Shown piece after piece: positions 22,498 through 58,116 of a stretch of 64,000 nucleotides of DNA (positions are counted from its first letter, which is position 1; each line of letters starts with the position of its first letter). Under the pieces are notes generated by a model. It did not search any database, was not told the DNA's origin, and saw only the letters and a list, made by a program, of their open reading frames with translations. Made by a program: the position numbers and the translations under genes. Source of the stretch: Candidatus Magasanikiibacteriota bacterium (GTDB taxonomy: Bacteria > Patescibacteriota > Patescibacteriia > Magasanikbacterales > GWA2-37-8); assembly GCA_046590235.1 (NCBI GenBank), contig JBKJTY010000032.1, positions 6,834 to 70,833 on the forward strand. The letters are read 5' to 3'.

Positions 22498-22959
22498 ATG
22501 TTTAACCAAAAGAGTAACCTACTGTATCAAGCTGGTTTTACCTTAGTTGAGATAGTTTTAACACTAGCAATTATATCGACTGTAGCCTTGATTTCCATGC
22601 CTATTTATTGGCAACTCAAGCCCGCCAACGATCTCGATACGACACTATCACTGGTTGTTCACAATTTGCGCCGCGCGCAAACACTGGCTATGGGAGTTGA
22701 GCATGATAGCACTTGGAGTGCCACTCTTGAACCCGGCACTATGACGCTGTACGCTACAGATACTAATGGGAATCGATTAGTAAATTACGACGAAGTTTTT
22801 CCTTTACCTGCTGCCATTACTTTTACCGGACAAAGCACTTTCGTTTTTGCCAAGCTAACTGGTAAGCCGGTTACCGCTGGTACTATCGTTCTTACCAACC
22901 CGCACAATAATGTTAGTAAAACTATTACAATTAACCAAGTTGGGGTGGCTAGTTACTAG
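22498..22959 (+). CDS. Prepilin-type N-terminal cleavage/methylation domain protein (pilin/pseudopilin)
   Basis: leader MFNQKSNLLYQAG then FTLVEIVLTLAII class III signal. Confidence 0.8.
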   Translation: MFNQKSNLLYQAGFTLVEIVLTLAIISTVALISMPIYWQLKPANDLDTTLSLVVHNLRRAQTLAMGVEHDSTWSATLEPGTMTLYATDTNGNRLVNYDEVFPLPAAITFTGQSTFVFAKLTGKPVTAGTIVLTNPHNNVSKTITINQVGVASY

Positions 22960-23371
22960 CACTACCAAGCAGTCCGGTTTTAGCTTGGTGGAAGCGCTGC
23001 TTTCCATTGCTCTTTTTGCATTGTTAATTGGCACCTTAATCAGTGGGGCGTTGTATGGTCAGCAGTCTGTTATTCTAGCCGGTAATCGCGAACGTGCCAC
23101 CGCGCTCGCTGAAGAAGGTCTGGAAGCCGTACGTAACTTACGTGATACGAGCTACACCAACTTGACTCCCGGTACCTACGGACTAGCAAATGATAACCAA
23201 AGATGGATATTGCAACCTTCACCTGATCAAACGGGAATTTTTGCGCGAAGCATTACTATTACATCCGTTGCAGAGGGTACAGCAGAAGTTGTTGCAACCG
23301 TCACTTGGCAATGGGTTACTACCCACAGTAATTCAGTCGTGCTTACTACCTATTTAACCAATTGGAAATGA
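22910..23371 (+). CDS. Prepilin-type protein (start uncertain: ATG 22910 or TTG 22940)
   Basis: KQSG then FSLVEALLSIALFALLIG prepilin signal; 5' end overlaps previous gene by ~50 nt. Confidence 0.7.
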   Translation: MLVKLLQLTKLGWLVTSTTKQSGFSLVEALLSIALFALLIGTLISGALYGQQSVILAGNRERATALAEEGLEAVRNLRDTSYTNLTPGTYGLANDNQRWILQPSPDQTGIFARSITITSVAEGTAEVVATVTWQWVTTHSNSVVLTTYLTNWK

Positions 23372-23883
23372 AACTTTTTCCTACTAGACAATCGATAAGT
23401 GGTTTCACACTCACAGAGGTGATTCTTTACATTTCTTTAGCGGCATTTACTTTGTTAGCCACTTCTACGCTATTTTTTTATGTGATTCAAGCCAAGATTA
23501 AACAACAAGCTATCTCTGAAGTTGAAGAACAAGGCAATACACTGCTTAGGGTTATCACACAAACAATTCGAAACGCACAAAACTTTGACAACCTGAGTCC
23601 AGGCACTACTAGCGCTACCCAGCTTTCAGTTACTTCGCCTTCAGGTACTTCGACGGTTTTTACTTTAGTTAATGGAACGTTGAATAGTAGGGAAAATGGC
23701 GGTTCGGACGTCGCATTGACATCTCCTCGAGTAATAATGACTAATCTTTTGTTTGAAAATTTGGGACAACCGACCACTATTGGCGCTATTCGAATCCGTT
23801 TCACACTAAGCACGGTTAATCAATCTGCTATACAAGAATTTTCTTATCAACAAACGTTTTATGGATCTGCTACAACCCGCTAA
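23362..23883 (+). CDS. Prepilin-type protein (minor pilin-like)
   Basis: SISG then FTLTEVILYISLAAF N-terminal signal. Confidence 0.7.
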   Translation: MEMKLFPTRQSISGFTLTEVILYISLAAFTLLATSTLFFYVIQAKIKQQAISEVEEQGNTLLRVITQTIRNAQNFDNLSPGTTSATQLSVTSPSGTSTVFTLVNGTLNSRENGGSDVALTSPRVIMTNLLFENLGQPTTIGAIRIRFTLSTVNQSAIQEFSYQQTFYGSATTR

Positions 23884-24277
23884 TAGCACCACCGGTTTTG
23901 CCACGCTCACCAACGTGATTATTTTGGGTGCAGTTGGGGCAACTATTACAACCACACTCTTAATTCTTGGGACGGGTGCTACGCGCAATAGTGGCATCGT
24001 CGAGCAGTCTGGTAAAGCTCGATCGCTGGCAAACGCTTGCGCGGAAACTGCCCTACTTCATATCAGACAAGATGGTTTGTTATCAGGAACCGATACCATT
24101 ACCTTGGGACAAGGTACCTGTACATATGCAATAACAGCAGCATCCGAGATTGCAGGAGAAGTATCTGCTACCGGACTTGTCGGAACTTTGAAACGAAAAA
24201 TACATATCGATCTCACTACAAATACCAGCACTCAAGCTATCAGCATTGGTTCCTGGCAAGAGGTAGCTGATTTTTAA
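23861..24277 (+). CDS. Pilus-associated protein with hydrophobic N-terminus (pilin-like)
   Basis: TTG then FATLTNVIILGAVGATITTTLLIL; last gene of the pilB-pilC-pilin run. Confidence 0.55.
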   Translation: MDLLQPANSTTGFATLTNVIILGAVGATITTTLLILGTGATRNSGIVEQSGKARSLANACAETALLHIRQDGLLSGTDTITLGQGTCTYAITAASEIAGEVSATGLVGTLKRKIHIDLTTNTSTQAISIGSWQEVADF

Positions 24278-24299
24278 AAGCACCCGGTTGGGTGCTTTT
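24276..24299. terminator. Bidirectional terminator between convergent pilin genes
   Basis: aaaagcacccggttgggtgctttt. Confidence 0.7.
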
Positions 24300-24321
24300 A
24301 AGTAGAAGTGTTACATTTTGA

Positions 24322-24807
24322 TTATCTAGTAATACGTATGGTTGCATCCAATTCAGCGTACGGCGCAGAAACGGTTACTCGATTGTTGCTTGTCAAAAAT
24401 ATCGTGTAACAGGCACTGTTACTGTCACTGTCCAAACACAGCTGTGCTGGATCATTCGGTATGCTTGTTAAGTATTTTTCGTTAAGCGTTAAATATGGAC
24501 CTAAATTAATCAAATTAGTACAATTAGGCTGCAAACTCGTTCTGCAAATCTCTGTTTCATTACTGGTAATTGTTGCTGGCAACACACCGTCATTATCAAT
24601 GGCGTATTGGTAGACTGCGTTCGCAATCGTATTAACGTCAGCGCGGCGCTGAGCGTTTCTTGCGCTAGCCAACTGCTTACTTGGGTTAATCGCAAAAATA
24701 ACGATGCCTGCCAAAATTGCGATCATCGCAACTACGAGAAGGATTTCAAGCAGAGTAAATCCAGCTTGTGTTTGTTTATTTTTTTGGAAAAGTCTGGTGA
24801 ATTTCAT
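24322..24807 (-). CDS. Type IV pilin (PilA-like, probable major pilin)
   Basis: MKFTRLFQKNKQTQAG then FTLLEILLVVAMIAILAGIV class III signal; two Cys pairs in C-terminal region; start moved to ATG 24807. Confidence 0.8.
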   Translation of the reverse strand: MKFTRLFQKNKQTQAGFTLLEILLVVAMIAILAGIVIFAINPSKQLASARNAQRRADVNTIANAVYQYAIDNDGVLPATITSNETEICRTSLQPNCTNLINLGPYLTLNEKYLTSIPNDPAQLCLDSDSNSACYTIFLTSNNRVTVSAPYAELDATIRITR

Positions 24808-24878
24808 ATACGAATTATAATGAAAGCAGTATACCACTCTTCATTATTTCTTACAATCTACTATTCGCAGCTAGCCTA

Positions 24879-26894
24879 TTATAGCTCATTTATATCTTTC
24901 AGAAAACTACCCGGACGACGTTTAGGCATTGGCGCATCTTCATCTACATATTGAATATCAGCACGGGGATCATTAAGGACAGTTGGATTGCTAAGCAATG
25001 AATGGTCTTCAATTAACTGATAATCGATTTCATCGAGGAACATACTTGGACCTGAAAGAAAATCACCATAAGCACCGCCCGCCATTGGATAAGTGAAATA
25101 TAGTAATTCTTTTGCGCGAGTGATTGCCACGTAAAATAATCGGCGCTCTTCTTCAATACCATTGTCTTCTTTCATAGCCCGATCGCTCGGGAATGAACCA
25201 CTTGAAAGATTTAAAATGAAAACCGCTTTCCATTCTAAACCTTTGGCTTGGTGAATGGTAGAGAGAACGACTCTGGCCTTACTGTCTTCTACGCTTGTGC
25301 TACGATGTGACTCTTGCAGTGTAGCGTCGCCGAGGAACGCGTCGAGGCTGTCATATTTTTCAGCGAATAATGCCAACTGCTTAATATCATTCAAACGATC
25401 TCGGCTGTCGACAAATTCACTTTCCAAATACTGTCGGTAATTTGATTGAGCCAGAACATCGATCAATGCGGTCGGCGAACGTACTGGTTCGCGCATCATA
25501 GCATCAAAGATTTTTAAAAAGTTATTCCATCCAGTCTGAGCTTTATTACCGAGCACTGTCCCGGCACGATAAACATCTTCCAAATTTTTTATTTCTTTCA
25601 TTTGTTCTATAACTTTTTGTGCTGCTGCTGGACCTACACCTTCTTCATGCATAAGCACACGAAGCCAAGCCGCAGTGTCGGCAAGGTTAGTCATCAATCG
25701 TAAATAACAAAGAATATCTTTGACATGAGCACGCTCAAAAAAGCGAACACCACCACGGTAATCATACGCGATACCGCGACGGACAAGCTCGACTTCAAGC
25801 ATCTGTGAATGGTGCGACGCACGGAACAACACGGCAATTTCGTTGGCCGGCGTCCCCTTTTCAATCAAATCAGCAATTTTTGCAGCAACAAAATTACCTT
25901 CGGATTGCTGGTCGAGTTGCGGATAGAGATATGGTTTTTCACTGGTTTTGATTGCCTTTAATGTTTTTTGAAACTGTGAACGATTGTTAGAAATAACATT
26001 ATTCGCGACATCGAGAATCTCTTTGCCAGATCGGTAATTGGTTTCCAGTTTAAAAATCTTGGTCCCAGGAAACGCATTCGGGAACTGTAAAATATTTTGA
26101 ATATCAGCCGCGCGGAACGAATAAATACTTTGCGCATCATCCCCTACCACCAAAATATTTTTGTTAATGGAGGCGAATTGATTGATAATAGACGCTTGGA
26201 TTTTGTTAGTATCCTGATACTCATCCACGAGCACATAATAAAATTGGCTCGCGTATTTTTCATGCACTTGCGGCTGGCGTAATAGCACCAATAGATTAAC
26301 AAGCAGGTCATCGAAGTCCATGGCGTTGGCTTCTTTTTTCTTTACTACATAGCCAGCGGCGATTTGTTTAATATCTTCAGCAAACGGAAACCATTGGAAA
26401 AATTTATTTTCTAAAACTGAATCAATCGTTGTTTCAGCATTGCGGGCATAGCTGATAACACTCGACACCGCGCTAGCGGAAGGAAATTTTTTCGCACCTT
26501 TAGCTTCAGGCTTCACTTCTTTAATGCAAAGCTTCAAAAGCGATTCACTATCGTCACTGTCGAGTACGGTAAAATTATTACCGTATCCCAAAAGTGGTGC
26601 GTAGATGCGTAAAATACGAAATGCAATATGATGGAACGTGCCTGACCACGGCAAAGCTGTTTGCATACCAGTGATTTGTTGCACGCGATGACGCATTTCT
26701 CCAGCAGCTTTGTTGGTAAATGTAACCAATAAAATATTTTCTGGTTTAACACCCTGCTCTAATAGAAAGGCAACACGAAAAGTAATGGTTCTTGTCTTAC
26801 CACTCCCCGCTCCAGCCAAAACTAAGCATGGACCGTCACCACCTTGCACAGCAGCAAGCTGTTCTTCGTTAAGTTCTTTTACAAAATCGATCAT
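24879..26894 (-). CDS. uvrD: ATP-dependent DNA helicase UvrD/PcrA family
   Basis: LVLAGAGSGKTRTIT Walker A, 671 aa, UvrD motifs throughout. Confidence 0.9.
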   Translation of the reverse strand: MIDFVKELNEEQLAAVQGGDGPCLVLAGAGSGKTRTITFRVAFLLEQGVKPENILLVTFTNKAAGEMRHRVQQITGMQTALPWSGTFHHIAFRILRIYAPLLGYGNNFTVLDSDDSESLLKLCIKEVKPEAKGAKKFPSASAVSSVISYARNAETTIDSVLENKFFQWFPFAEDIKQIAAGYVVKKKEANAMDFDDLLVNLLVLLRQPQVHEKYASQFYYVLVDEYQDTNKIQASIINQFASINKNILVVGDDAQSIYSFRAADIQNILQFPNAFPGTKIFKLETNYRSGKEILDVANNVISNNRSQFQKTLKAIKTSEKPYLYPQLDQQSEGNFVAAKIADLIEKGTPANEIAVLFRASHHSQMLEVELVRRGIAYDYRGGVRFFERAHVKDILCYLRLMTNLADTAAWLRVLMHEEGVGPAAAQKVIEQMKEIKNLEDVYRAGTVLGNKAQTGWNNFLKIFDAMMREPVRSPTALIDVLAQSNYRQYLESEFVDSRDRLNDIKQLALFAEKYDSLDAFLGDATLQESHRSTSVEDSKARVVLSTIHQAKGLEWKAVFILNLSSGSFPSDRAMKEDNGIEEERRLFYVAITRAKELLYFTYPMAGGAYGDFLSGPSMFLDEIDYQLIEDHSLLSNPTVLNDPRADIQYVDEDAPMPKRRPGSFLKDINEL

Positions 26895-26984
26895 AAATAG
26901 AAAAAATCTGTTTCATTATAACAGTCATGCTGTGCGCGGTCAAAGGCACATCTATTGTCATACCAAGCATATGTGTCATTCCCG

Positions 26985-27028
26985 CGAAGGCCATGCCTAC
27001 CGGCAGGCAGGCGGGAATCCAGGACACC
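26985..27028. repeat. Palindromic repeat element (GTCATTCCCGCG...GCGGGAATCCAGG with internal insert)
   Basis: gtcattcccgcgaagg-ccatgcctaccggcaggcag-gcgggaatccaggacacc; second copy at 55845-55876; degenerate half-copy gtcattctgaggaatc at 27041-27056. Confidence 0.7.
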
Positions 27029-27123
27029 ATAATGTCATTCTGAGGAATCGAAGAATCTTCCTATTATTCAATGTTACTTCACTATCGTTCTTCTCTTTTC
27101 TTGCTATTGCAAAGTGCGCATGT

Positions 27124-27285: not shown

Positions 27286-28455
27286 ATGTCATTTTTTAAA
27301 CTCCTCAAAAAAGATTCAAAAACCCACGCCCGCCTTGGCCAGATCACTACTGACCACGGTGTCATTGAGACGCCAATATTTATGCCGGTGGGTACACAAG
27401 CAACCGTGAAGACGCTCGATAGCGCTGACATGCACCAGATGAACGCCCAGATTATTTTAGGTAACAATTATCATTTACATTTACGTCCGGGTGAAGACTT
27501 GATTGCCGCAGCTGGTGGCTTACATAAATTCATGAACTGGAACAAACCGATTTTGACTGACAGCGGTGGCTTCCAGGTGTTTAGTTTGGGTTTACAAAAA
27601 GAGCAGCGGATAAATGGTAAGAATACCAACACAACTAAACTTGTTAAAATTACCGAAGAAGGCGTCGCCTTCCAAAGTCATATTGATGGCTCACGACATA
27701 TTTTCACTCCGGAATCCGCCATTTTGTGCGAACATAAAATTGGCGCTGATATCATCATGGCATTTGATGAGTGCACACCAGACTCCGCAACTCCAGAATA
27801 CACTCGCGAAGCCATGGAACGCACACACCGTTGGGCTGTCCGCAGCTTGGACGCGCATAAAGAAAATACCAAGTACCATGGTTATAACCAATTTATTTTC
27901 GGCATTATTCAAGGCGCTAATTACAAAGAATTACGTGAAGAATCCGCCCGCTACATTAGTAGTTTAGATTTTGATGGCATTGCGATTGGTGGTGAATCCA
28001 TTGGCTATAATATGGAAGCGACCGCCAACATCCTTGATTGGGTACATCCAATTATTCCAGAAGATAAACCACGATACTCCATGGGTGTTGGTCTAAATCC
28101 AACTGATCTTATTATTGCTGTTGAGCATGGTGTCGATATGTTTGATTGTGTTGCCCCAACTCGCCTCGCTCGCCACGGCATGCTTTTCACTTTTGATAGA
28201 ACAAATAAACATCGTCTCAACATTAAGAATGCAAAATGCGCCACCGATTTTAGTCCGATTGATAGCGCTTGTGATTGTCACACCTGTAAAAATTATTCCC
28301 GCAGCTACCTTCACCACTTATTTGATGCTGACGAGATGACCGGTATGCGCCTGGCTTCAATTCACAATCTCCGCTTTATGCTTAAACTGATGGAAAATGT
28401 ACGAGCTGCAATAAAGGAAGATCGCTTCACTGAATTTAAGGAACAATGGATGTAA
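27286..28455 (+). CDS. tgt: Queuine tRNA-ribosyltransferase (tRNA-guanine transglycosylase)
   Basis: LTDSGGFQVFSL, zinc site CDCHTC, 389 aa. Confidence 0.9.
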   Translation: MSFFKLLKKDSKTHARLGQITTDHGVIETPIFMPVGTQATVKTLDSADMHQMNAQIILGNNYHLHLRPGEDLIAAAGGLHKFMNWNKPILTDSGGFQVFSLGLQKEQRINGKNTNTTKLVKITEEGVAFQSHIDGSRHIFTPESAILCEHKIGADIIMAFDECTPDSATPEYTREAMERTHRWAVRSLDAHKENTKYHGYNQFIFGIIQGANYKELREESARYISSLDFDGIAIGGESIGYNMEATANILDWVHPIIPEDKPRYSMGVGLNPTDLIIAVEHGVDMFDCVAPTRLARHGMLFTFDRTNKHRLNIKNAKCATDFSPIDSACDCHTCKNYSRSYLHHLFDADEMTGMRLASIHNLRFMLKLMENVRAAIKEDRFTEFKEQWM

Positions 28456-48127: not shown

Positions 48128-49021
48128 ATGCTCTCATTCAAAGTAGTAACCGACCTTGAAGAAGCAAAAAAATGGTGGGAAATGTTTTCACCAAAGTTGA
48201 ATGTCTATGATAATTGGGAGTTTCGCGCTTCTTTTCATAGTCATTTTAATAATCCGTTGCATTTTATCATTGGGTACGAAACAGAAACTCCGGTAGGCTT
48301 ATTACCGCTTCAAAAACACTTCGAAGGACAGTACCTCGAATTCTTTGGCGGTGCCTACATGGAAGATAATCGTATTTTTTTGAAGCCCGGTTTTGAACAA
48401 TACACTTCCGAATTCTTCGCAAGCATTACTGTGCCGGCAAAACTCGATTTTATACTTGGCACTGATGAATTTACAAACGCTTTACCCATTCGCGATCAAA
48501 AATACACTCTTCAACTGACAGACTACGGCGACTATGAAGGCTACTTCATAAATGCTTTTAGCAGCAAGACTCGTGCCAACATTAAAAAACAGCTAGCGGC
48601 AATTACCGAAGCTGACATCACTGTTGTAACCAGTCGTTTTTCAGATATTGATCAGATCTTTGCGCTCAATATTGCTACGTTTGGCGGCGAATCAACATTC
48701 CACTTCCCAAAACGACAAGATCAATTGCGTGGTATTTTGAAACTTGATGAAACACAATCGCATCTCCTTTCGTTCATGCAAAACGGACAAGTTGTTGGTG
48801 CTTCCTTGATGATCCAACACGGTGATTACTTCGCTTATTTAAACGCCGGTTCAAAGGCGCAAGAAATCCCAAACTTGGGAACGTTTATTTATTTCAAAAA
48901 CATTGAACTCGCCTTTCAATTACAAGCAAAAATGCTTGATGCCCGCGCCGGATCATTTAATTGGAAAGAGCGATTGCATTTCACTCCACATCGGCAGCAT
49001 TATTTTTTTAACCAAGCCTAA
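48128..49021 (+). CDS. Fem/CelD-like GNAT-fold protein (BioF2-like acetyltransferase domain), paralog 1
   Basis: 297 aa; paralogous to next two genes (W..FSP...FD.WEFR, GY....PVGLLPLQ, LEFFGG.YMEDNR.F.KPG); FemABX/CelD similarity is from pattern recognition only. Confidence 0.45.
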   Translation: MLSFKVVTDLEEAKKWWEMFSPKLNVYDNWEFRASFHSHFNNPLHFIIGYETETPVGLLPLQKHFEGQYLEFFGGAYMEDNRIFLKPGFEQYTSEFFASITVPAKLDFILGTDEFTNALPIRDQKYTLQLTDYGDYEGYFINAFSSKTRANIKKQLAAITEADITVVTSRFSDIDQIFALNIATFGGESTFHFPKRQDQLRGILKLDETQSHLLSFMQNGQVVGASLMIQHGDYFAYLNAGSKAQEIPNLGTFIYFKNIELAFQLQAKMLDARAGSFNWKERLHFTPHRQHYFFNQA

Positions 49022-49023
49022 GT

Positions 49024-49935
49024 ATGAACCAGCTTACTTTTAAGGTTATTAAAGACGTTGCTGAAGCTGAAAAGCTTTGGAAATTACTGTCGCCGGCAGA
49101 AACTATTTTTGATGATTGGGATTTTCGTGCTGATTGGCATCGCCACCAACAACAGGAACTCTATTTCATTGCCGGCTATGATGGCACAACCCCTATTGGC
49201 TTACTTGGCCTCCAATATAACGCCACACGCAGCTGTATTGAAGCATTTGGTAGTAACTACATGGAAGATAATCGAGTATTTATCAAGCCAGGTTATGAAG
49301 CACAGATTCCCGGCTTTTACGAACAGGCAAAAACCCTTGGCAAACCGATTAATGTAGAGTATATCCGCGGTAATGATCCGTTTACCATTTCCCTTCCGCT
49401 TGACGGCTATAAATATGTCTTACCGATTGATTTTAAGACAACCGACGAATATACCGAAAAACTTTTTAGCGGGGAAACTCGTAAAAAGCTGATGAAGCGT
49501 ATTAAAAAAGTGTCTGAATTAGGTCTCACTATTACTGAAAATGACTTTGCTGATATTCCATTATTCATGCAATGGAACGTGAATGCCTTTGGTGGCGAAG
49601 CAGCGTTTGAAGACCGTCCGCATCGTAATGAAATTTTTACCGACTTACTCACCAAATCACACGCGACTTTCAAACCCAGCCTACTTACCTTCCGTATTGG
49701 CGGTGAGATCCAAGCGATAACGATGGGTTTGGTGTATAATGGCCATACTTATTGTTCCGTCAACCGAGGCTTTAACCCAACAGCTGACAAAAACTTACGC
49801 GAACTGGTACATTTAAAAAAGGTAGAAGACGCTCTCAAACACAACTGCACATCCTTTGATGCTTTTGCGGGTGACTACGGTTGGAAAGAACGCTGGGGGT
49901 GTCAAAAAATCGCACAATATAAATTTATTGCCTAA
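49024..49935 (+). CDS. Fem/CelD-like GNAT-fold protein, paralog 2
   Basis: 303 aa, same conserved blocks as paralog 1. Confidence 0.45.
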   Translation: MNQLTFKVIKDVAEAEKLWKLLSPAETIFDDWDFRADWHRHQQQELYFIAGYDGTTPIGLLGLQYNATRSCIEAFGSNYMEDNRVFIKPGYEAQIPGFYEQAKTLGKPINVEYIRGNDPFTISLPLDGYKYVLPIDFKTTDEYTEKLFSGETRKKLMKRIKKVSELGLTITENDFADIPLFMQWNVNAFGGEAAFEDRPHRNEIFTDLLTKSHATFKPSLLTFRIGGEIQAITMGLVYNGHTYCSVNRGFNPTADKNLRELVHLKKVEDALKHNCTSFDAFAGDYGWKERWGCQKIAQYKFIA

Positions 49936-49944
49936 CTCAATCCT

Positions 49945-50853
49945 GTGATCACTATTCGCTGTATTAAAAACTTTGACGAAGCAGAGGAGCTTTGGCGGCG
50001 CCTTAGCCCTAACGCTAGTCTTTTTGACGCTTGGGAATTACGTTACTGTTCCTACAAGCATACCAACGACGAACTTTTTTTCTATACCGCTTTTGACGGA
50101 GACGAACCAGTTGCCCTTCTCCCGTTACAGTTAACTACCGCTAAAGGTTACTTAGAATTTTTTGGCGGTGTCATGATGGAAGATAATCGTTTCTTTTATA
50201 CACCGGGCCACGAAGCCGTATTGTCACACTTAGTTGCGGCAATCCAACAACCCGCCCGACTTTGCTACATGGTTGGCTCTGATCCATTTACCACCTCACT
50301 CACCCCGATGGAAGACGGTAAGTATGTACTTAACCTCACTGAGCATCCAAGCACTGATGAGTACATTCAACATGTTTTTAGCGGTGAAACAAAAAAGAAA
50401 TTTATTAAACGAATACGTAAAGTGGCGGAGACTGGTGATGTAACAATCGCTCGCGGTCACGCTCCCGATTTAGAATTATTATTTGAGTTTAATATTAAGA
50501 AGTTTAAAAACGCCTCCATCTTTAACCTGCCTTTCCGTAAAGACATTTACCGCGAAATGTTTACTGCGTTCCCATCATCGCTTTTGACCTATAGTGTTGG
50601 CGGACAGAAGCAGGCAGTGGGATTTGGTGTCATTTATAACCATGGATTCTATTCGTTTAACACCAGCGTTAATCCAGGATCACTTCCAGACCTGAGCACC
50701 TACGTCAGAATTAACAAAATAGACGAAGCGATCGCCCTCGGAGCCACACTGTATGACGCGATGGCAGACGATCTTGGCTGGAAACGAAACTGGCACTTAA
50801 CGATGGTTCCTCTCTACGAAATAATTCTCCCAAATAAAAACCGACCGCTGTAA
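49945..50853 (+). CDS. Fem/CelD-like GNAT-fold protein, paralog 3
   Basis: 302 aa, same conserved blocks. Confidence 0.45.
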   Translation: MITIRCIKNFDEAEELWRRLSPNASLFDAWELRYCSYKHTNDELFFYTAFDGDEPVALLPLQLTTAKGYLEFFGGVMMEDNRFFYTPGHEAVLSHLVAAIQQPARLCYMVGSDPFTTSLTPMEDGKYVLNLTEHPSTDEYIQHVFSGETKKKFIKRIRKVAETGDVTIARGHAPDLELLFEFNIKKFKNASIFNLPFRKDIYREMFTAFPSSLLTYSVGGQKQAVGFGVIYNHGFYSFNTSVNPGSLPDLSTYVRINKIDEAIALGATLYDAMADDLGWKRNWHLTMVPLYEIILPNKNRPL

Positions 50854-52055: not shown

Positions 52056-54893
52056 ATGCCTCCATCAATAAAATCAGCAGGGACTTCGTCCACAAAAACG
52101 CAATCACAGACCACCACCTCACTACAGCTTATTTTGGCTATAGCACTTCTTGCAATCTCGGGCAGTGCAGCATTCGTTACTGCTCCATCAATTAACGTAT
52201 CATCCAACCTTACTTGTAAAGATACCGACGGTGGCAACATGCCAAATGTTTTTGGTGAAATTGTTATAACCAACAAACTTACCAATGTCCGCAAGACGGT
52301 AGCTGCTGATACTTGTATTTCAGACCTCATCATCTCCGAAACAATCTGTAACGCAAAAGAAAAAAGCGGCCATTCTACTGCACCTTCCAAATGTTCCAAT
52401 GGTACATGCCAAAAAGGTGTTTGCGTCCCTACTAAAGTAGCGCCTCCGTTACCTGTAACTAGTTTTAATTTTTTAAAACATCCGAGTTCAACACCTATTA
52501 CCGTTCTTCCAAGCATGTCGAACGTGATATTAGGCCGTTTTATCGCCCGCTCTACGGGAGCTGAAGTCATTTTAGGTGAAATCGGATTAAGTTTTGTAGT
52601 TAATAAACCAAATCTTTTGTACGGTAATTATGTCGTAAAGCTTAACGGCACACCAATTAGCACAGATGCTGTTACCAGAATTGCTAATTCTGGCTCTCAA
52701 CTAACAACTATAACACTTACCACTCAACGTGCCCTGCCAATCGGTGATAATACTATTACCGTGGAGGCTTCCATAGGTAGCTCTGCCATGAATGGCGGAG
52801 TAATCCTCACTTATCTTGATTTAAGTAAGATAAAACAAGTGGGGGCCGGACAAATGTATTATGACCCGGGTGTGCAGTCGCTCAGTAGTGATGCGGTTAC
52901 CGTTCAAACAGGTGCACTCCAGGTTACAACTTTACCAAGCCCTCCTGCGCAAACCGTAGAAGTTGGCACAAGCAATGTTACTCTAGCAATGTTTGAACTT
53001 AATGCCGGCACAGTTTCGTCTGGTGATGATGTAAAGGTTACCAAGCTAATTTTTACCGACAAATTAGGTGGCACAGCTGCTTTTACCAATATTCGTAATT
53101 TAGTTTTACTCGACCAATCCGGCAACCCACTAGCTACATCAGCTGCTACAACTGTTAATAGCGCTGCTACTACCTTTACCCTTGTTAATCCTCTTATTGT
53201 TCCAAAGACTGGTTCTCTAACCCTCACCTTAAAGGGTGATGTTGTTGGTGGAACAAATGGCACACACACCTTTAGCATCTCCAGTGTTGCTAATGTTAAA
53301 GCCCAAGAAAAAAGTACAGGAAACTTGATTTCTCCAGTACTGGGTACCGGCGCTGGTCAAATGATTACCCTTAAAGTTACTCCACCGCCAGTAGCTGGCG
53401 CTGGTGCTTTACGAGTCACCACACTATCAACGCCGCCAGCACAAACTGTAGCTATTAATAGTACCAACGTTGTTTTGGCCATGATAGAACTTAATGCTTT
53501 AGCTGTTTCTTCCGGTGAAGATGTTAGAATAAGTAAGGTAGTAGTAAATGACAAGTTAACTGGTGCTGCGCAATTTTCAGATATTGGTAACTTAGTTATC
53601 TATGACCCAAATGGAAACCCACTACTTACAACCGGTAATACAGCAATGAATTCAGCAACAACCGCTTTCACTTTTGTAACTCCTTTGGCAGTGCCTAAAT
53701 CAGGATCAATTACACTTACTCTTAAAGCGGATATTATTGGCGGGGTAGGCGGAACTCACACCTTTAGTGCAAGTAGCCAGTCGTCAGACATGGTTGCTGT
53801 CGGGAAGGTAAGCGGTAACACAATTATCCCTACCTTTGGTACTGGTACCGGTCAACCGATTACTATCGATAATAGTTCACCTAATCTAGCATTTTCACTT
53901 GTATCTGGAAGTAACGCTAGCCCAAGCCTTAGCCAGAATGTTATCCTCGATCAGAAAAATGTACCTGTTTTTGCTTTCAAAATGACAGCCTTAACAGAAC
54001 CGATCAAACTGACTTCGCTCAAACTTACAGCTGCTGGAAAAATTAGTCCTTATGATTTTGTTAATATCCGCCTATATAGAAACAATGAAACAACTCCCTT
54101 TGCTTCTGCTTCCCAACTTTCTCCATGTACAAGCAGCGGCTGTTCCTTTACTTGGCTAGCTACTGATAATTTATTACCAAACCCTATTCAACTGGGGGCG
54201 CCTGTAACAGTGTATGTTAAAGCCGACATTGGCCCAGTAGGTGCGGCGGCACTTGGTGACAGTGTTGTCTTTTCACTAACTGACGCAACCAGCGTTTCAG
54301 CTAAGGGTACTGTCTCGGGAATAAACGCTAACGCACAAGGTTTACCTATTCGGTCAGCCGGCACTCTCTTTATTAACCCGTTCAGTGTTACAATGTCGCC
54401 AGACTATCCTTCTTCTGGATCGAGTCAAACTCTCGCAATCATAAACAACAGTCCAATTGCTCGTTTTAAAATAACGAATAATGGTACAGCAAAAATCTCT
54501 CTTGAACGAATTGCTTTCACCGATTTAGGAACGCACACTGGTAACACCACATTGTACAGCTTAAAATACTCTCACCAAAATAGTTCAAATAGTCCGGTTA
54601 ATACTGCTATCGCTTCAAATAACGACGGATTAAATTTCAATCTTCCAGAAGATAAAATCACTATTGATGGTGGCGCGTACCGCTACATTACTGTAAGTAT
54701 CGCAAACATTGGCGGTGCTGTTTCTGAAGATGCGTGGCAACTTTCTATCAAACCAATCGACAATGTTTGGTTCAGTGCTTTAGAAGCTGACCTTGGTTAC
54801 GACGCTAACGGCTCCGGAACACTTTCTGGCAAAACCACCCATTTATATCCTGATGGTGGCAACCAAATGGTTGGAGCTATCGTAAAACAATAA
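52056..54893 (+). CDS. Large secreted/surface protein with ~160-aa tandem repeats
   Basis: signal-anchor LQLILAIALLAISGSAAFVTA; two near-identical-architecture repeats (aa ~288-450 and ~451-612; nt ~52917-53405 and ~53406-53892) plus diverged copies either side; Thr/Ser/Gly/Asn-rich beta-strand pattern. Confidence 0.75.
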   Translation: MPPSIKSAGTSSTKTQSQTTTSLQLILAIALLAISGSAAFVTAPSINVSSNLTCKDTDGGNMPNVFGEIVITNKLTNVRKTVAADTCISDLIISETICNAKEKSGHSTAPSKCSNGTCQKGVCVPTKVAPPLPVTSFNFLKHPSSTPITVLPSMSNVILGRFIARSTGAEVILGEIGLSFVVNKPNLLYGNYVVKLNGTPISTDAVTRIANSGSQLTTITLTTQRALPIGDNTITVEASIGSSAMNGGVILTYLDLSKIKQVGAGQMYYDPGVQSLSSDAVTVQTGALQVTTLPSPPAQTVEVGTSNVTLAMFELNAGTVSSGDDVKVTKLIFTDKLGGTAAFTNIRNLVLLDQSGNPLATSAATTVNSAATTFTLVNPLIVPKTGSLTLTLKGDVVGGTNGTHTFSISSVANVKAQEKSTGNLISPVLGTGAGQMITLKVTPPPVAGAGALRVTTLSTPPAQTVAINSTNVVLAMIELNALAVSSGEDVRISKVVVNDKLTGAAQFSDIGNLVIYDPNGNPLLTTGNTAMNSATTAFTFVTPLAVPKSGSITLTLKADIIGGVGGTHTFSASSQSSDMVAVGKVSGNTIIPTFGTGTGQPITIDNSSPNLAFSLVSGSNASPSLSQNVILDQKNVPVFAFKMTALTEPIKLTSLKLTAAGKISPYDFVNIRLYRNNETTPFASASQLSPCTSSGCSFTWLATDNLLPNPIQLGAPVTVYVKADIGPVGAAALGDSVVFSLTDATSVSAKGTVSGINANAQGLPIRSAGTLFINPFSVTMSPDYPSSGSSQTLAIINNSPIARFKITNNGTAKISLERIAFTDLGTHTGNTTLYSLKYSHQNSSNSPVNTAIASNNDGLNFNLPEDKITIDGGAYRYITVSIANIGGAVSEDAWQLSIKPIDNVWFSALEADLGYDANGSGTLSGKTTHLYPDGGNQMVGAIVKQ

Positions 54894-54941: not shown

Positions 54942-57860
54942 CTATTTTACTAAGCTCACTTTTAACTTTTGTCCATCAACATCAAGTTCTACCCCATCAT
55001 TCTGTTTCTCAACTAATTCTTTAGCTGAGACATTCTTTAGTAGTTCGACTACTGATTCTTTAATAAGAGCTTTGATGTCTGCACTTGAGGTTTCGTATTC
55101 GATTACGACCTTGTCTTCGATAGTTAATTTTTGTTCTTTGCGTAATTGATTGATAGTACGAATAATTTCGCGCAATGTACCCTCTTTTTTAAGTTCAGGT
55201 GTGATTTCTGTATTGAGGGCGACAGTGAACTGATTTTCTGTCTTTGTTTTCCATTGTGTACCAGAAGGATTCTTTGCTGCATTCACAATGACAGCAGACT
55301 TCACATTCAACTCATCGGCGATAATCGTTAGCATATCTTTATGCAACTCACCACCAACATCAGACCAAACAGTTTCAATTGCACTGATCGTAAATTCACC
55401 GAGTGCTTGGCGCACCTTCATACCTGTTTCAGCACGAAGGGCTAAGCCGTATTCAACTAGTTTACGCACAGTTCCCATCTGCTGCAGTAATGCTGTATCA
55501 AGTGCTTTCTTGTTAACCGTCGGCCAAACTTCTAGATGCACACTCTTGTTTTCGCCTTCTAATGTTTGGAAGATTTTTTCTGCAATGAAAGGTGTAAACG
55601 GCGCCATAACTTTGGATAGCGTCAATAAAACTTCACGAAGCGTACCGAGCGCTGCCTGCTTGTCGTCAGCGTCATCACCTTTGAAACGATCACGTGAACG
55701 GCGGACATACCATTGTGATAATTCGGTGACAAATTCAAGGATCGGACGCGGAGCTTGAGCTAATTCGTAGCGCTCCATATGCTCAGTTACATCGCTCACG
55801 AGTGTCTCGAGCTTTGCCATGACCCATCGATCAAGCACATGGGTGTCATTCCCGCGCAGGCGGGAATCCAGGATACCATCACCGGCAAACATGCTGTAAA
55901 ATTCGAGCACGTTGGTCGTAGTGTTGATCAATTTACTGAAAACTTCACGCACACCCGCCTCAGTAAAATTTAGAGCTTCAGCTGCCACGACCGGTGAAGA
56001 CATCAAGTAAAAACGTAGCGCGTCAGCACCATACTTTTCGAGTACCATGTTTGGATCTGGATAGTTCTGCAACTTTTTACTCATCTTTTTACCATCTTCA
56101 GCGAGTACGATACCATTCACAATGACATTCTCAAACGCCACTTTTCCAAATAGAGCGGTGCCTAGTACATGTAGGTAATAAAACCACGCACGTGTCTGGT
56201 CCTGACCTTCCGCGATGAACTGCGCTGGAAAAGTATCATCAAATTTTTTCTTATTTTCGTATGGGTAGTGCACCTGCGCGTACGGCATGGAACCGGAATC
56301 AAACCAGGTATCAAGCACATCTGGAATACGCTTCATCGTGCCACCGCATTTACATGGGAACATGACTGCATCCATAACATGTTTATGCAGGTCGGTGACT
56401 TTTTGTCCGCTTACTTTTTCAAGTTCAGCAGCTGAACCAAATGCTTCAAACTTTTTACACTCACCGCACTTCCACACCGGCATCACACTCGCCCAAAAAC
56501 GCTGGCGAGAGATAGACCAGTCGCGCGCACCCTCGAGCCATTTACCAAAACGACCTTCTTTAATATGCTCCGGTGACCAATTAATGTTTTTAGCAAGCTT
56601 GAGAGCTTTATCTTTAACTTCAGTCACTTTTACAAACCATGACGATGTTGCATAGTTCAAAAGCGGGGTGTCACAACGCCAGCAATGTGGGTAACTATGT
56701 ACGAGATTTTGCTTCAAGAAAAATAAATTGTGTTCTTGAAGATAGCGGATAATATTAATATCTGTTGCAAGGCGCACCTTATCGTCATCTGAACGTGGCT
56801 TCACTTCCTGCCCAGCAAAATCAGTCACTTCCGGCTTGAAGCGACCATCCATACCAACATGTTGCACGAGCGGAACCTGTTCACGCTTACCGACTTTAAA
56901 GTCGTCTTCACCGAACGCTGGAGCGATATGCACGACACCAGTACCGTCAGTCGTTGTAACGAAATCACCAGCTACGATACGGAAGGCGTTTTTAGTATCT
57001 TTGTAATATGGGAAGAGTGGATTGTATGATTTACCAACTAAGTCTTTAGTTTTTACAAACTTCGTCTCCCCTGTTAATTTCATTCGAGCAAAAGCAGTTT
57101 TTTCAAGGATATATGTTTCCGTTTTTCCCGCTTCAGTGGTGGCGGTGTATGAAACATATTCCAAATCTGGACCAACCGCGAGCGCAACGTTGCCTGGCAA
57201 CGTCCAAGGAGTGGTTGTCCAAGCAAGCACAAACGTACCTGGCTGTTCCACGAGCTCAAATTTCACAAACACCGAAATATCTTTTACATCCTTATACCCT
57301 TCGCTCACCTCTTGTTGCGACAGCGTCGTTTCGCAACGCGGACAAATATGCATGGTGCGATAATCTTCGTAGACCAACCCCTTGTCCCACAGCTGCTTGA
57401 ATACCCACCAGACCGATTCCATATACTCAATATCCATGGTCTTGTACGCATTTTTCATATCCACCCAGCGACCGAGACGGCGAATGGTTTTTTCCCAATC
57501 CTCAACATAGCCGAGCACTTTCGAGCGACAGAGTTCATTAAATTTTGCCACACCCATGGCTTCAATTTCTTTTTTTGTTTTAGTACCGAGTTCTTTTTCA
57601 ACGATATTCTCGATAGGTAGCCCGTGACAATCCCAGCCCCATTTGCGCTCCACCTGGTACCCACGCATTGTGAAATAGCGCGGCACAACATCTTTCATAG
57701 CCGAGCCGACAAGGTGACCATAGTGAGGAGAGCCGGTCGCAAATGGCGGACCATCATAAAAGACATACGGCTTGCCTTTACGGGCGACGGATTTTTCGAA
57801 AGTTTGGTCTTTATCCCAGAACTCGAGGATTTTTTGTTCTTCAAGGTTGGCGTTATACAT
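54942..57860 (-). CDS. ileS: Isoleucine--tRNA ligase (class I)
   Basis: GPPFATGSPHYGHLV HIGH-region, KMSKKL KMSKS motif, editing domain; start moved to MYNANLEEQKILEFW (ATG 57860); upstream ORF extension is TTG-initiated leader. Confidence 0.9.
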   Translation of the reverse strand: MYNANLEEQKILEFWDKDQTFEKSVARKGKPYVFYDGPPFATGSPHYGHLVGSAMKDVVPRYFTMRGYQVERKWGWDCHGLPIENIVEKELGTKTKKEIEAMGVAKFNELCRSKVLGYVEDWEKTIRRLGRWVDMKNAYKTMDIEYMESVWWVFKQLWDKGLVYEDYRTMHICPRCETTLSQQEVSEGYKDVKDISVFVKFELVEQPGTFVLAWTTTPWTLPGNVALAVGPDLEYVSYTATTEAGKTETYILEKTAFARMKLTGETKFVKTKDLVGKSYNPLFPYYKDTKNAFRIVAGDFVTTTDGTGVVHIAPAFGEDDFKVGKREQVPLVQHVGMDGRFKPEVTDFAGQEVKPRSDDDKVRLATDINIIRYLQEHNLFFLKQNLVHSYPHCWRCDTPLLNYATSSWFVKVTEVKDKALKLAKNINWSPEHIKEGRFGKWLEGARDWSISRQRFWASVMPVWKCGECKKFEAFGSAAELEKVSGQKVTDLHKHVMDAVMFPCKCGGTMKRIPDVLDTWFDSGSMPYAQVHYPYENKKKFDDTFPAQFIAEGQDQTRAWFYYLHVLGTALFGKVAFENVIVNGIVLAEDGKKMSKKLQNYPDPNMVLEKYGADALRFYLMSSPVVAAEALNFTEAGVREVFSKLINTTTNVLEFYSMFAGDGILDSRLRGNDTHVLDRWVMAKLETLVSDVTEHMERYELAQAPRPILEFVTELSQWYVRRSRDRFKGDDADDKQAALGTLREVLLTLSKVMAPFTPFIAEKIFQTLEGENKSVHLEVWPTVNKKALDTALLQQMGTVRKLVEYGLALRAETGMKVRQALGEFTISAIETVWSDVGGELHKDMLTIIADELNVKSAVIVNAAKNPSGTQWKTKTENQFTVALNTEITPELKKEGTLREIIRTINQLRKEQKLTIEDKVVIEYETSSADIKALIKESVVELLKNVSAKELVEKQNDGVELDVDGQKLKVSLVK
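55845..55876. repeat. Palindromic repeat copy inserted in-frame within ileS
   Basis: gtcattcccgcgcaggcgggaatccaggatac; encodes ILDSRLRGNDT in IleRS frame and VIPAQAGIQ on the other strand. Confidence 0.7.
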
Positions 57861-58040
57861 AAGAAAAATAAAAACACGTCTTTTAAACGTGCCAAGAGTC
57901 CCAATGGGACGATACCATCTTGTGCTTTCACTTAATGACGGCGCTGACGGGCCTACCCGCGGGGATCTACTAGCCGTTTCCGCCAAGTGGCGGAGGCGTT
58001 CTGCCCCGAGCTCCCTGGTGATGCCAGGTGAAATGCTTCT
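57861..58040 (-). promoter_or_regulatory. ileS 5' leader, candidate T-box-like riboswitch
   Basis: Promoter TTGACA-17-TACTAT at 58047-58075 (minus) gives ~180-nt leader; 3' part folds as AAGA[UGGUAUC]GUCCC-AUUG-GGGAC UCUU (7-nt bulge beginning UGGU, complementary to tRNA-Ile ACCA), then hairpin CACGU-loop-ACGUG plus U-run, then ATG. Confidence 0.35.
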
Positions 58041-58074
58041 ATCCACATAGTACGCCCAAAACAGCACTTTGTCA

Positions 58075-58116
58075 AAAGCAAACAGGGTGGGATGGCGGCG
58101 CCTGAACCGCCATCCC
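58075..58116 (-). terminator. Terminator after GC-rich lipoprotein gene
   Basis: minus strand gggatggcgg-ttcaggcg-ccgccatccc then accctgtttgcttttg. Confidence 0.6.

Follow-up and report, generated by a model that had tools for sequence, protein, structure and literature searches.

The 64,000-nt stretch of contig JBKJTY010000032.1 analysed here (the window), from a Candidatus Magasanikiibacteriota bacterium, carries at 54942–57860 on the minus strand the gene ileS, which encodes an intact type-2 (eukaryote-like) isoleucyl-tRNA synthetase (IleRS) of 972 aa and hosts a 29-nt palindromic repeat of the NTS, or CGTC-1, type at 55844–55872 (plus strand). Read on the plus strand, the repeat is composed of a TGTC tag (55844–55847), a left arm ATTCCCGC (55848–55855), a GCAG loop (55856–55859), a right arm GCGGGAAT (55860–55867) and a CCAGG tail (55868–55872, with CCA at 55868–55870). 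The arms form a perfect 8-bp stem closed by the 4-nt loop, with a folding energy of −13.0 to −13.7 kcal/mol as RNA and of about −8.8 to −8.9 kcal/mol as DNA, and the asymmetric TGTC head and CCAGG tail give the flanks of the hairpin an orientation. The element is GC-rich relative to the window (42–44% GC), and it was the only deep-intragenic, perfect, GC-rich, short-loop hairpin of ≥ 8 bp in the window, the rest being terminator-like and intergenic. An initial annotation of this DNA, made from the sequence alone, had described a 32-nt palindrome, gtcattcccgcgcaggcgggaatccaggatac, at 55845–55876 (plus strand) within the IleRS open reading frame (ORF), and the palindrome is indeed there; its further statement that the repeat is carried in frame also held, with the frame intact and the segment read as ILDSRLRGND, while the element proper was narrowed to the 29 nt given above.

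The host protein contained the Pfam domains tRNA-synt_1 and Anticodon_1, carried PHYGH and KMSKK motifs, kept the invariant columns of its family and matched solved IleRS chains with E = 1e-219 to 1e-231. Its best named database relatives were the IleRS of Candidatus Magasanikbacteria (Patescibacteria, also known as the candidate phyla radiation or CPR). A longer ORF of 1041 aa (54942–58067, minus strand), the same form as that of the public entry P0001, overextends ileS by 69 codons; orthologs and a conserved leader indicate that the real start is the ATG at 57860, because the 69 upstream codons are the conserved leader read through. Numbered from this methionine, the repeat supplies ten codons, I663-L-D-S-R-L-R-G-N-D672 (55845–55874, minus strand), such that IleRS reads ...FAGDG-ILDSRLRGND-THVLDRW... 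across it. In an AlphaFold2 model built on 60 orthologs (mean predicted local distance difference test score, pLDDT, of 84; predicted TM-score of 0.79), the segment was located in a coil (659–674) between two helices (634–658 and 675–696) at the entry to the helical anticodon-binding domain, and residues 661–670 had a block pLDDT of 58 with no predicted secondary structure. Alignment with solved chains indicated that the loop is longer in eukaryotic IleRS at the same point. Five of the six reading frames of the repeat are open, and on the opposite strand a 64-codon ORF (55779–55973, plus strand) includes the peptide VIPAQAGIQ. This ORF exists as the initial annotation had stated; it was rejected as a gene, since all of it falls within conserved ileS codons and the open frames of the repeat account for it, and it is a by-product rather than evidence.

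A second copy of the repeat, with the same tag, arms and tail, was found at 26974–27023 (plus strand) in the intergenic region between a gene for a UvrD-like helicase (24879–26894, minus strand) and tgt (27286–28455, plus strand). This related copy had been noticed previously and is real, although its limits are those given here and not 26985–27028, and its loop is 25 nt long (26986–27010); the TGTC tag lies at 26974–26977, CCA at 27019–27021, and the loop holds an inner palindrome, GCCTACCGGCAGGC. Each half of the element is present exactly twice in the 64 kb, cf. 0.04–0.05 occurrences expected from shuffled sequences. Head-to-tail with this copy lies a degenerate repeat, TGTC ATTCTGAGGAATCGAAGAAT (27033–27056, plus strand; TGTCATYCTGAG type), which resembles the TGTC ATCCTGAG...CTCAGAAT GACA palindromes that two orthologs described below (P0064 and P0103) carry in their IleRS loop. 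Long loops also occurred elsewhere and fell into three subtypes: those with the inner palindrome GCCT(A/G)CCGGCAGGC, as in the second window copy and in locus L009 (9949–9992), where the copy follows the terminator of the ileS leader and precedes the start codon; those with an inner hairpin followed by GGTAAACTCC(A/G); and those with 9-nt loops such as ATGCTTTTA. Further long-loop copies were seen in L066, L075, L102 and L124. The published persistence of Ssn cleavage after replacement of the loop may explain why long loops are tolerated.

The ileS copy belongs to a repeat family that has been described under more than one name, among them NTS and Ssn-related motif (SRM), and whose superfamily also takes in dRS3 of Neisseria and the Rickettsia elements RPE-4 and RPE-6. 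Its sequence TGTCATTCCCGCGCAGGCGGGAATCCAG matched the NTS consensus CGTCATTCCCGCGMAVGCGGGAATCYRG at 27 of 28 positions, with a single mismatch at position 1. In the paper that defines it (Nat Commun 2025;16:2388, PMC11893778), the 28-nt NTS consensus, CGTCATTCCCGCGMAVGCGGGAATCYRG, for which the authors allow one mismatch, is the target of SsnA, a GIY-YIG nuclease of 94 aa with a single domain, whose cuts are confined to single-stranded DNA (ssDNA) beside the hairpin; ssn genes (small GIY-YIG, cd10448) are typically bracketed by NTS repeats, and in Neisseria NTS located close to genes reduce, by way of SsnA, how much transforming DNA is integrated. CGTC-tagged repetitive extragenic palindromic sequences (REPs), in turn, have an unpaired CGTC tag (with TGTC and CCTC variants), an 8–9 bp stem with A/T at its first two positions, a 4–5 nt loop and a CCA tail; CGTC-1, with an 8-bp stem and a 4-nt loop, is the dRS3 of Neisseria, and CGTC-1 and CGTC-4 correspond to the Rickettsia palindromic elements RPE-6 and RPE-4, respectively (Di Nocera et al., BMC Genomics 2013;14:522, PMC3733652). 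The ileS copy has the TGTC tag, the 8-bp stem beginning with AT, the 4-nt loop and the CCA tail of CGTC-1. Rfam contained no family for the repeat, and no match in the window reached a gathering score; around both copies only sub-threshold chance matches (FtrB, CRISPR-DR, miRNA) were returned. One of these, to the Francisella small RNA FtrB, was centred on the ileS repeat (55819–55904, plus strand; 25 bits vs. a gathering score of 66, E = 0.02), and the seed of that family may include a similar hairpin repeat.

In an alignment of 120 Magasanikbacteria IleRS orthologs, the segment supplied by the repeat sits in a length-variable block of columns just before a conserved (H/N)-VLD-x-W motif. The nearest ortholog, P0002 (87% identical), has DDTVGKQASKH opposite the GDGILDSRLRGNDTH of the window and 24 nt, vs. 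36 nt in the window, between the aligned GAT and CAT codons, a net difference of +12 nt (+4 aa). The loops of P0002 and P0003 (74% identical) contain unrelated sequences of 24–27 nt at the site, and no remnant of the element was detected in either, as local alignment was no better than with shuffled sequence (p = 0.37 and 0.57, respectively); the ileS sequence flanking the element aligned continuously with the orthologs. The element is thus missing in the nearest relatives but occurs at a second place in the genome, as expected for an insertion, and the earlier proposal of an insertion rather than ancestral residues was thereby upheld, whereas the anticipated addition of ~11 aa was not borne out, the net gain being 4 aa in a variable loop. 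Scanning JGI metagenome contigs for the ileS flanks separated by a gap of 10–40 nt gave 0 matches, insert-free alleles included, and a metagenome search recovered no relatives closer than P0002, returning IleRS of ≤ 60% identity. The suggestion that the element is or was mobile in this genome is based on two copies in 64 kb, and the metagenome scan found no population polymorphism.

Palindromes were found in the same IleRS loop in the DNA of eight other assemblies, when the loop DNA of other orthologs was retrieved from independent NCBI, ENA, JGI and Logan assemblies. P0036 carries TGTC ATCCCCGC GAAG GCGGGGAT CCA, a member of the same family with a compensated stem variant, in forward orientation, i.e. 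opposite to the window copy; P0010 carries a decayed copy with an eroded left arm that keeps GCGGGAAT CCAGGATACC; P0009 and P0038 carry repeat dimers with their tags outward; P0064 and P0103 carry ~85-nt palindromes of the form TGTC ATCCTGAG...CTCAGAAT GACA; and P0019 carries an unrelated CCCCTC...GGGGAG palindrome, a third type. A regular-expression scan detected NTS/SRM-type peptides in 9 of the 120 IleRS proteins, all nine in this loop, and the even more length-variable region of the editing domain (~305–340) had no such peptide except for one doubtful candidate, in P0059. On a neighbour-joining tree computed with the loop masked, carriers were scattered and their sisters were usually element-free. 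We counted at least six TGTC-tagged events (the window; P0010; P0009 and P0038; the clade of P0036, P0103 and P0051; P0064; and P0100), to which the third palindrome type adds about two. The sisters P0036 and P0103 share the same left junction, CGCG|TGTCATCC, with different bodies, a sequence pattern that suggests replacement or turnover at an occupied site, and P0051 retains only an ...AQNDK tail in the loop.

Inserts were also seen at other positions of the enzyme. P0103 (L009) has a second lineage-specific insert, SASAPAGLRRDE, at ~754–765 after a conserved RDRFK motif, encoded by the GC-rich self-complementary DNA GCCCCTGCGGGGC; the editing domain of P0059 contains ...ATLRPRNDG..., and P0044 and P0046 contain PHPTLSL near residue 836. 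These inserts suggest that other small palindromes occasionally reach other IleRS sites.

The exact core of the repeat is distributed widely among bacteria. A scan for TGTCATTCCCGC-N(4–30)-GCGGGAATCCAGG with one genome per species returned at least 120 loci with at least 133 copies; among the matches listed, hosts included Nitrospirota, Planctomycetota, Chloroflexota, Actinomycetes, Acidobacteriota, several proteobacterial classes, Bacteroidota/Ignavibacteria, Omnitrophota, Atribacterota and a Rickettsia endosymbiont, the GC content of host loci ranged from 32 to 70%, the commonest loops were GAAA (33), GAAG (29) and GCAG (18), and 56 of 133 copies had an inverted partner ≤ 60 nt away. At least 12 loci were from Patescibacteria, labelled as Magasanik-, Falkow-, Buchanan-, Morani-, Roizman- or Nomurabacteria, as Paceibacterota or only as 'Patescibacteria group'. 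Two of the core loci closely parallel the ileS case, in that the repeat is translated within a gene of the translation apparatus: a Roizmanbacteria GatB (L084, 5685–5760) contains an in-frame NTS dimer translated as ...AVIPAKAGIQDKKGNNRLDPLLRGDD..., and the glutamyl-tRNA synthetase (GluRS) of a metagenome-assembled genome of 33% GC (L099, ~1290–1377) contains an in-frame NTS dimer just before the anticodon-binding domain, with a core identical to that of the window ileS copy, including the GCAG loop and the CCAGGAT tail.

In other genomes the repeat is associated with genes for GIY-YIG nucleases. When core loci were searched by tblastn with a repeat-flanked GIY-YIG protein, homologs were found in six loci among the matches listed, and the repeat adjoined or overlapped the gene in five of the six; the assignment of the repeat-flanked genes to GIY-YIG was made by Pfam (PF01541). 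In L101 and L093 the gene is bracketed by the repeat on both sides, in L017 and L031 it lies immediately beside or overlaps the repeat, and in L126 the nearest copy found is ~5.8 kb away. The Magasanikiibacteriota contig L097 begins inside a GIY-YIG gene, of which it holds a C-terminal fragment whose stop codon is the TGA of the repeat tag; this fragment shares 72–85% identity with proteins of a very large GIY-YIG family, and a profile search gave no CPR-labelled GIY-YIG member among the 120 matches listed.

Comparison with known systems placed the element close to the NTS and CGTC-1 repeats. Like NTS/SRM (PMC11893778), it has a near-identical sequence, a hairpin whose unpaired 5′ tag gives it an orientation and a loop that is free to vary; unlike the NTS consensus, it starts with T rather than C, and unlike NTS in Neisseria, which has hundreds of copies, it is of low copy number in the window. 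Its host is also a member of the Patescibacteria, a name absent from the main text of PMC11893778, and it is translated inside an essential gene, a situation that the passages available from that paper do not treat. Like CGTC-1 (PMC3733652), the family forms outward-tag dimers (in the orthologs P0009 and P0038) and in-frame intragenic copies; intragenic CGTC repeats, some in tRNA synthetase genes, were already recorded in that study, which found no dedicated transposase. Unlike CGTC-1, the intergenic window copy has a 25-nt loop; the CGTC-1 family was reported from five phyla, CPR not among them, and the reuse of one protein loop across lineages was reported only for Xanthomonas recB (PMC3733652).

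The initial annotation had likened the insertion to Rickettsia palindromic elements, and the likeness proved closer than analogy: the ileS element has the anatomy of CGTC-1, and its link to RPE rests on the equation of CGTC-1 and CGTC-4 with RPE-6 and RPE-4 (PMC3733652) together with the exact core in the chromosome of a Rickettsia endosymbiont (L058). As with RPE, an in-frame palindromic repeat leaves the host gene intact and occupies a loop position between helices, here of low pLDDT, although this gene belongs to a CPR bacterium, free-living or episymbiotic, and not to an obligate intracellular alphaproteobacterium. RPE-1 is ~100–150 bp in length. The ileS element, at 29 nt with a net gain of 4 aa, is too short to be the classic RPE-1, a longer palindromic insertion (PMC3733652). 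With GTAG REP/RAYT units (IS200/IS605-like, Y1) the family shares a short GC-rich hairpin, an unpaired tetranucleotide tag, the flanking of a small nuclease gene in repeat-gene-repeat order and a presumed action on ssDNA hairpins, but its tag is TGTC/CGTC and its associated protein is GIY-YIG and not HUH/Y1; assignment to GTAG REP/RAYT was rejected given the TGTC tag and the lack of Y1_Tnp among the scanned ORFs. [quoted passage not shown]

The two window copies were also found to share ~10 nt of flank on each side beyond the 29-nt core (55832–55843 and 55873–55882 vs. 26964–26973 and 27024–27033). The left flanks are CAAGCACATG in ileS and CAAGCATATG in the intergenic copy, the right flanks ATACCATCAC and ACACCATAAT, and both copies have CAAGCAYATG upstream and, directly behind the CCAGG tail, AYACCAT. 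We estimated the probability of such sharing by chance at ~1e-6. No such flanks were found around other CPR or pan-bacterial copies of the repeat, and the ileS-side flanks are ancestral coding sequence that is also present in P0002. Flank sharing would therefore mean either that the ileS copy, flanks included, was the template of the intergenic one or that both copies used a common target motif. A joint proposal, that the IleRS loop is a true preferred landing site in Patescibacteria and that the ileS copy with ~10-nt flanks served as template for the intergenic copy, appears rather improbable to us; if both parts were true, the locus would record an act of copying as well as the target preference of a repeat family that is presumed to spread by means of Ssn.

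Taken together, these observations are best explained by a copy of the NTS/SRM (CGTC-1) repeat that became fixed in a variable loop of ileS and is simply translated, most likely with neutral effect on the enzyme, a reading to which we assign a probability of roughly 0.8. The copy would have been fixed in ileS of this Magasanikbacteria lineage after its split from the nearest sampled relative, when a repeat landed in, or replaced part of, a variable and probably solvent-exposed coil at the entry to the anticodon-binding domain, and it probably survives because the coil is permissive, five of the six frames of the repeat are open and the net change of +12 nt keeps the frame. By analogy with NTS, the family may spread by means of small single-domain GIY-YIG ssDNA nucleases (Ssn), presumably acting on ssDNA hairpins, and the NTS-ssn-NTS arrangement resembles REP/RAYT units. 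Recurrence in the loop is best explained if selection filters insertions to the few permissive coding sites available in gene-dense CPR genomes, and an existing hairpin may attract or seed further copies.

Several observations weigh against this reading. There is no clean empty site, and on the aligned sequences the difference of +4 aa from P0002 is not a simple addition of 29–35 nt; either the loop shed ~7 of its older codons during or after the event, or it was shorter in the ancestor. Target-site duplications or direct repeats were not detected at the junctions of the ileS element, only two copies of the repeat are present within the 64-kb window, and the 133 copies listed show no conserved flank, save a pyrimidine-rich bias at −8 to −1 before the tag. 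No gene for a GIY-YIG protein or Y1 transposase was found in the window by regular expressions, by tblastn with two GIY-YIG proteins or by a Pfam scan of 35 ORFs, about half of those in the window, ribosomal or large housekeeping-looking genes making up most of the other half. Neither PMC3733652 nor PMC11893778 demonstrates mobility of the repeat family; according to the former, CGTC repeats have no known dedicated transposase, and the latter shows ssDNA cleavage and not transposition. In addition, ~3 NTS-like copies in ~19 kb of intergenic Magasanikbacteria DNA give a rough expectation of ~0.007 per 45-nt loop, compared to 5 of 120 loops occupied, an order-of-magnitude estimate from tiny counts at loci that were not randomly chosen, by which a hotspot may exceed mere permissiveness.

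This last comparison bears on a proposed preference, of the repeats themselves or of their moving enzyme, for this DNA site or for a hairpin already present there. Such targeting would account for the confinement of all nine NTS/SRM-type peptides to the loop, with none in the more length-variable ~305–340 region, for the dimers and the replacement of one element by another at an identical junction, for the ~10 nt of flank common to both window copies and for an occupancy that is, roughly, several-fold above intergenic density. Orientation and exact junctions nevertheless vary between lineages, neither the 133 copies listed nor the CPR copies have a flank consensus, and the numbers are small and drawn from biased loci, which leaves targeting a doubtful explanation; tolerance and targeting as causes of the recurrence cannot be separated on present data. 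The same series of occupied loops could instead be the product of old inheritance, in which a repeat entered the loop early in Magasanikbacteria and was then turned over, inverted, replaced or eroded in place, the window copy being a survivor or refreshed by gene conversion. Occupation in many branches and the decay and turnover at one site (the P0036/P0103 junction, the P0051 tail and the decayed left arm of P0010) fit this history, but the window copy is intact, with a perfect stem, canonical tag and tail, and is oriented opposite to the other NTS-type copies, its two nearest relatives lack any remnant, and many element-free lineages separate the carriers on the tree, such that we consider old inheritance unlikely.

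The intact state of the copy, and its position where the catalytic body meets the anticodon-binding domain, might alternatively reflect a selected function, with the hairpin kept because Ssn cleaves there and so restricts recombination or transformation at this gene, because the mRNA pauses there at a domain boundary, or because the peptide is useful. The effect of NTS and SsnA on transforming DNA in Neisseria (PMC11893778) and the location of the GluRS repeat of L099 just before its anticodon-binding domain are consistent with such a role. Most orthologs, including the nearest, do without the element, however; peptide, orientation and element type vary among carriers, decayed copies exist, and the segment is modelled with low confidence and no secondary structure, all of which make a selected function very unlikely. 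Finally, the hypervariability of the loop and the small net change in length could be taken to mean that nothing was inserted, the palindrome having arisen by chance in an ancestral variable loop or by misassembly. This is effectively refuted by the match to 27 of 28 consensus positions together with a second window copy (cf. 0.04 expected in shuffles), by the same core in at least 120 other loci, by analogous in-frame repeats in independent NCBI, ENA, JGI and Logan assemblies, and by the continuous alignment of the flanks of the ileS element with orthologs.

Other features of the window were recorded as well. The ileS leader (57861–58075, minus strand) is conserved across Magasanikbacteria and was also found upstream of ileS in L001, L002, L004, L005, L009 and L010. 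It contains TTGACA (58075–58070) and, after a 17-nt gap, TACTAT (58052–58047), followed by a hairpin CCTGG-CATCA-CCAGG (58028–58014) whose loop contains the Ile codon ATC and then A, by conserved GC-rich blocks ending in AAGATGGTA(C/T)CG, similar to the T-box motif UGGUACCGCG, and by a terminator hairpin and T-run directly before the ATG. From these features the leader looks like an atypical T-box with a very short stem I, and Rfam returned no match to it even at E ≤ 1. Three tandem paralogous genes of ~300 aa (48128–49021, 49024–49935 and 49945–50853) share a 76-nt block at ~900-nt spacing, and the neighbouring 945-aa ORF (52056–54893) had no Pfam match. Beside the UvrD-like helicase gene, a cluster of small genes (22498–24837) encodes N-terminal prepilin-type methylation motifs (pseudopilin or type IV pilin-like).

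The ileS case is a typical member of a known behaviour, together with the GatB and GluRS copies and the intragenic CGTC catalogue of 2013; its novelty lies in a CPR host and in the way one IleRS loop has been occupied repeatedly. With this finding, the translation of hairpin repeats within essential genes is extended to the candidate phyla radiation, and the initial impression of an RPE-like element is linked to a concrete system of NTS repeats and Ssn ssDNA nucleases. For annotation, VIPAKAGIQ, LDSRLRGND and SFPRRRES in CPR proteins or in small 'hypothetical' ORFs are signatures of the repeat. Within one candidate phylum, two or three palindrome families have taken a single IleRS loop on at least six occasions and in both orientations. 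The resulting series at one homologous site, with copies that are intact, dimeric, replaced or decayed, could serve to measure the rates at which repeats arrive and erode, and the loop series could test target preference and the gain of loops in proteins of streamlined genomes.

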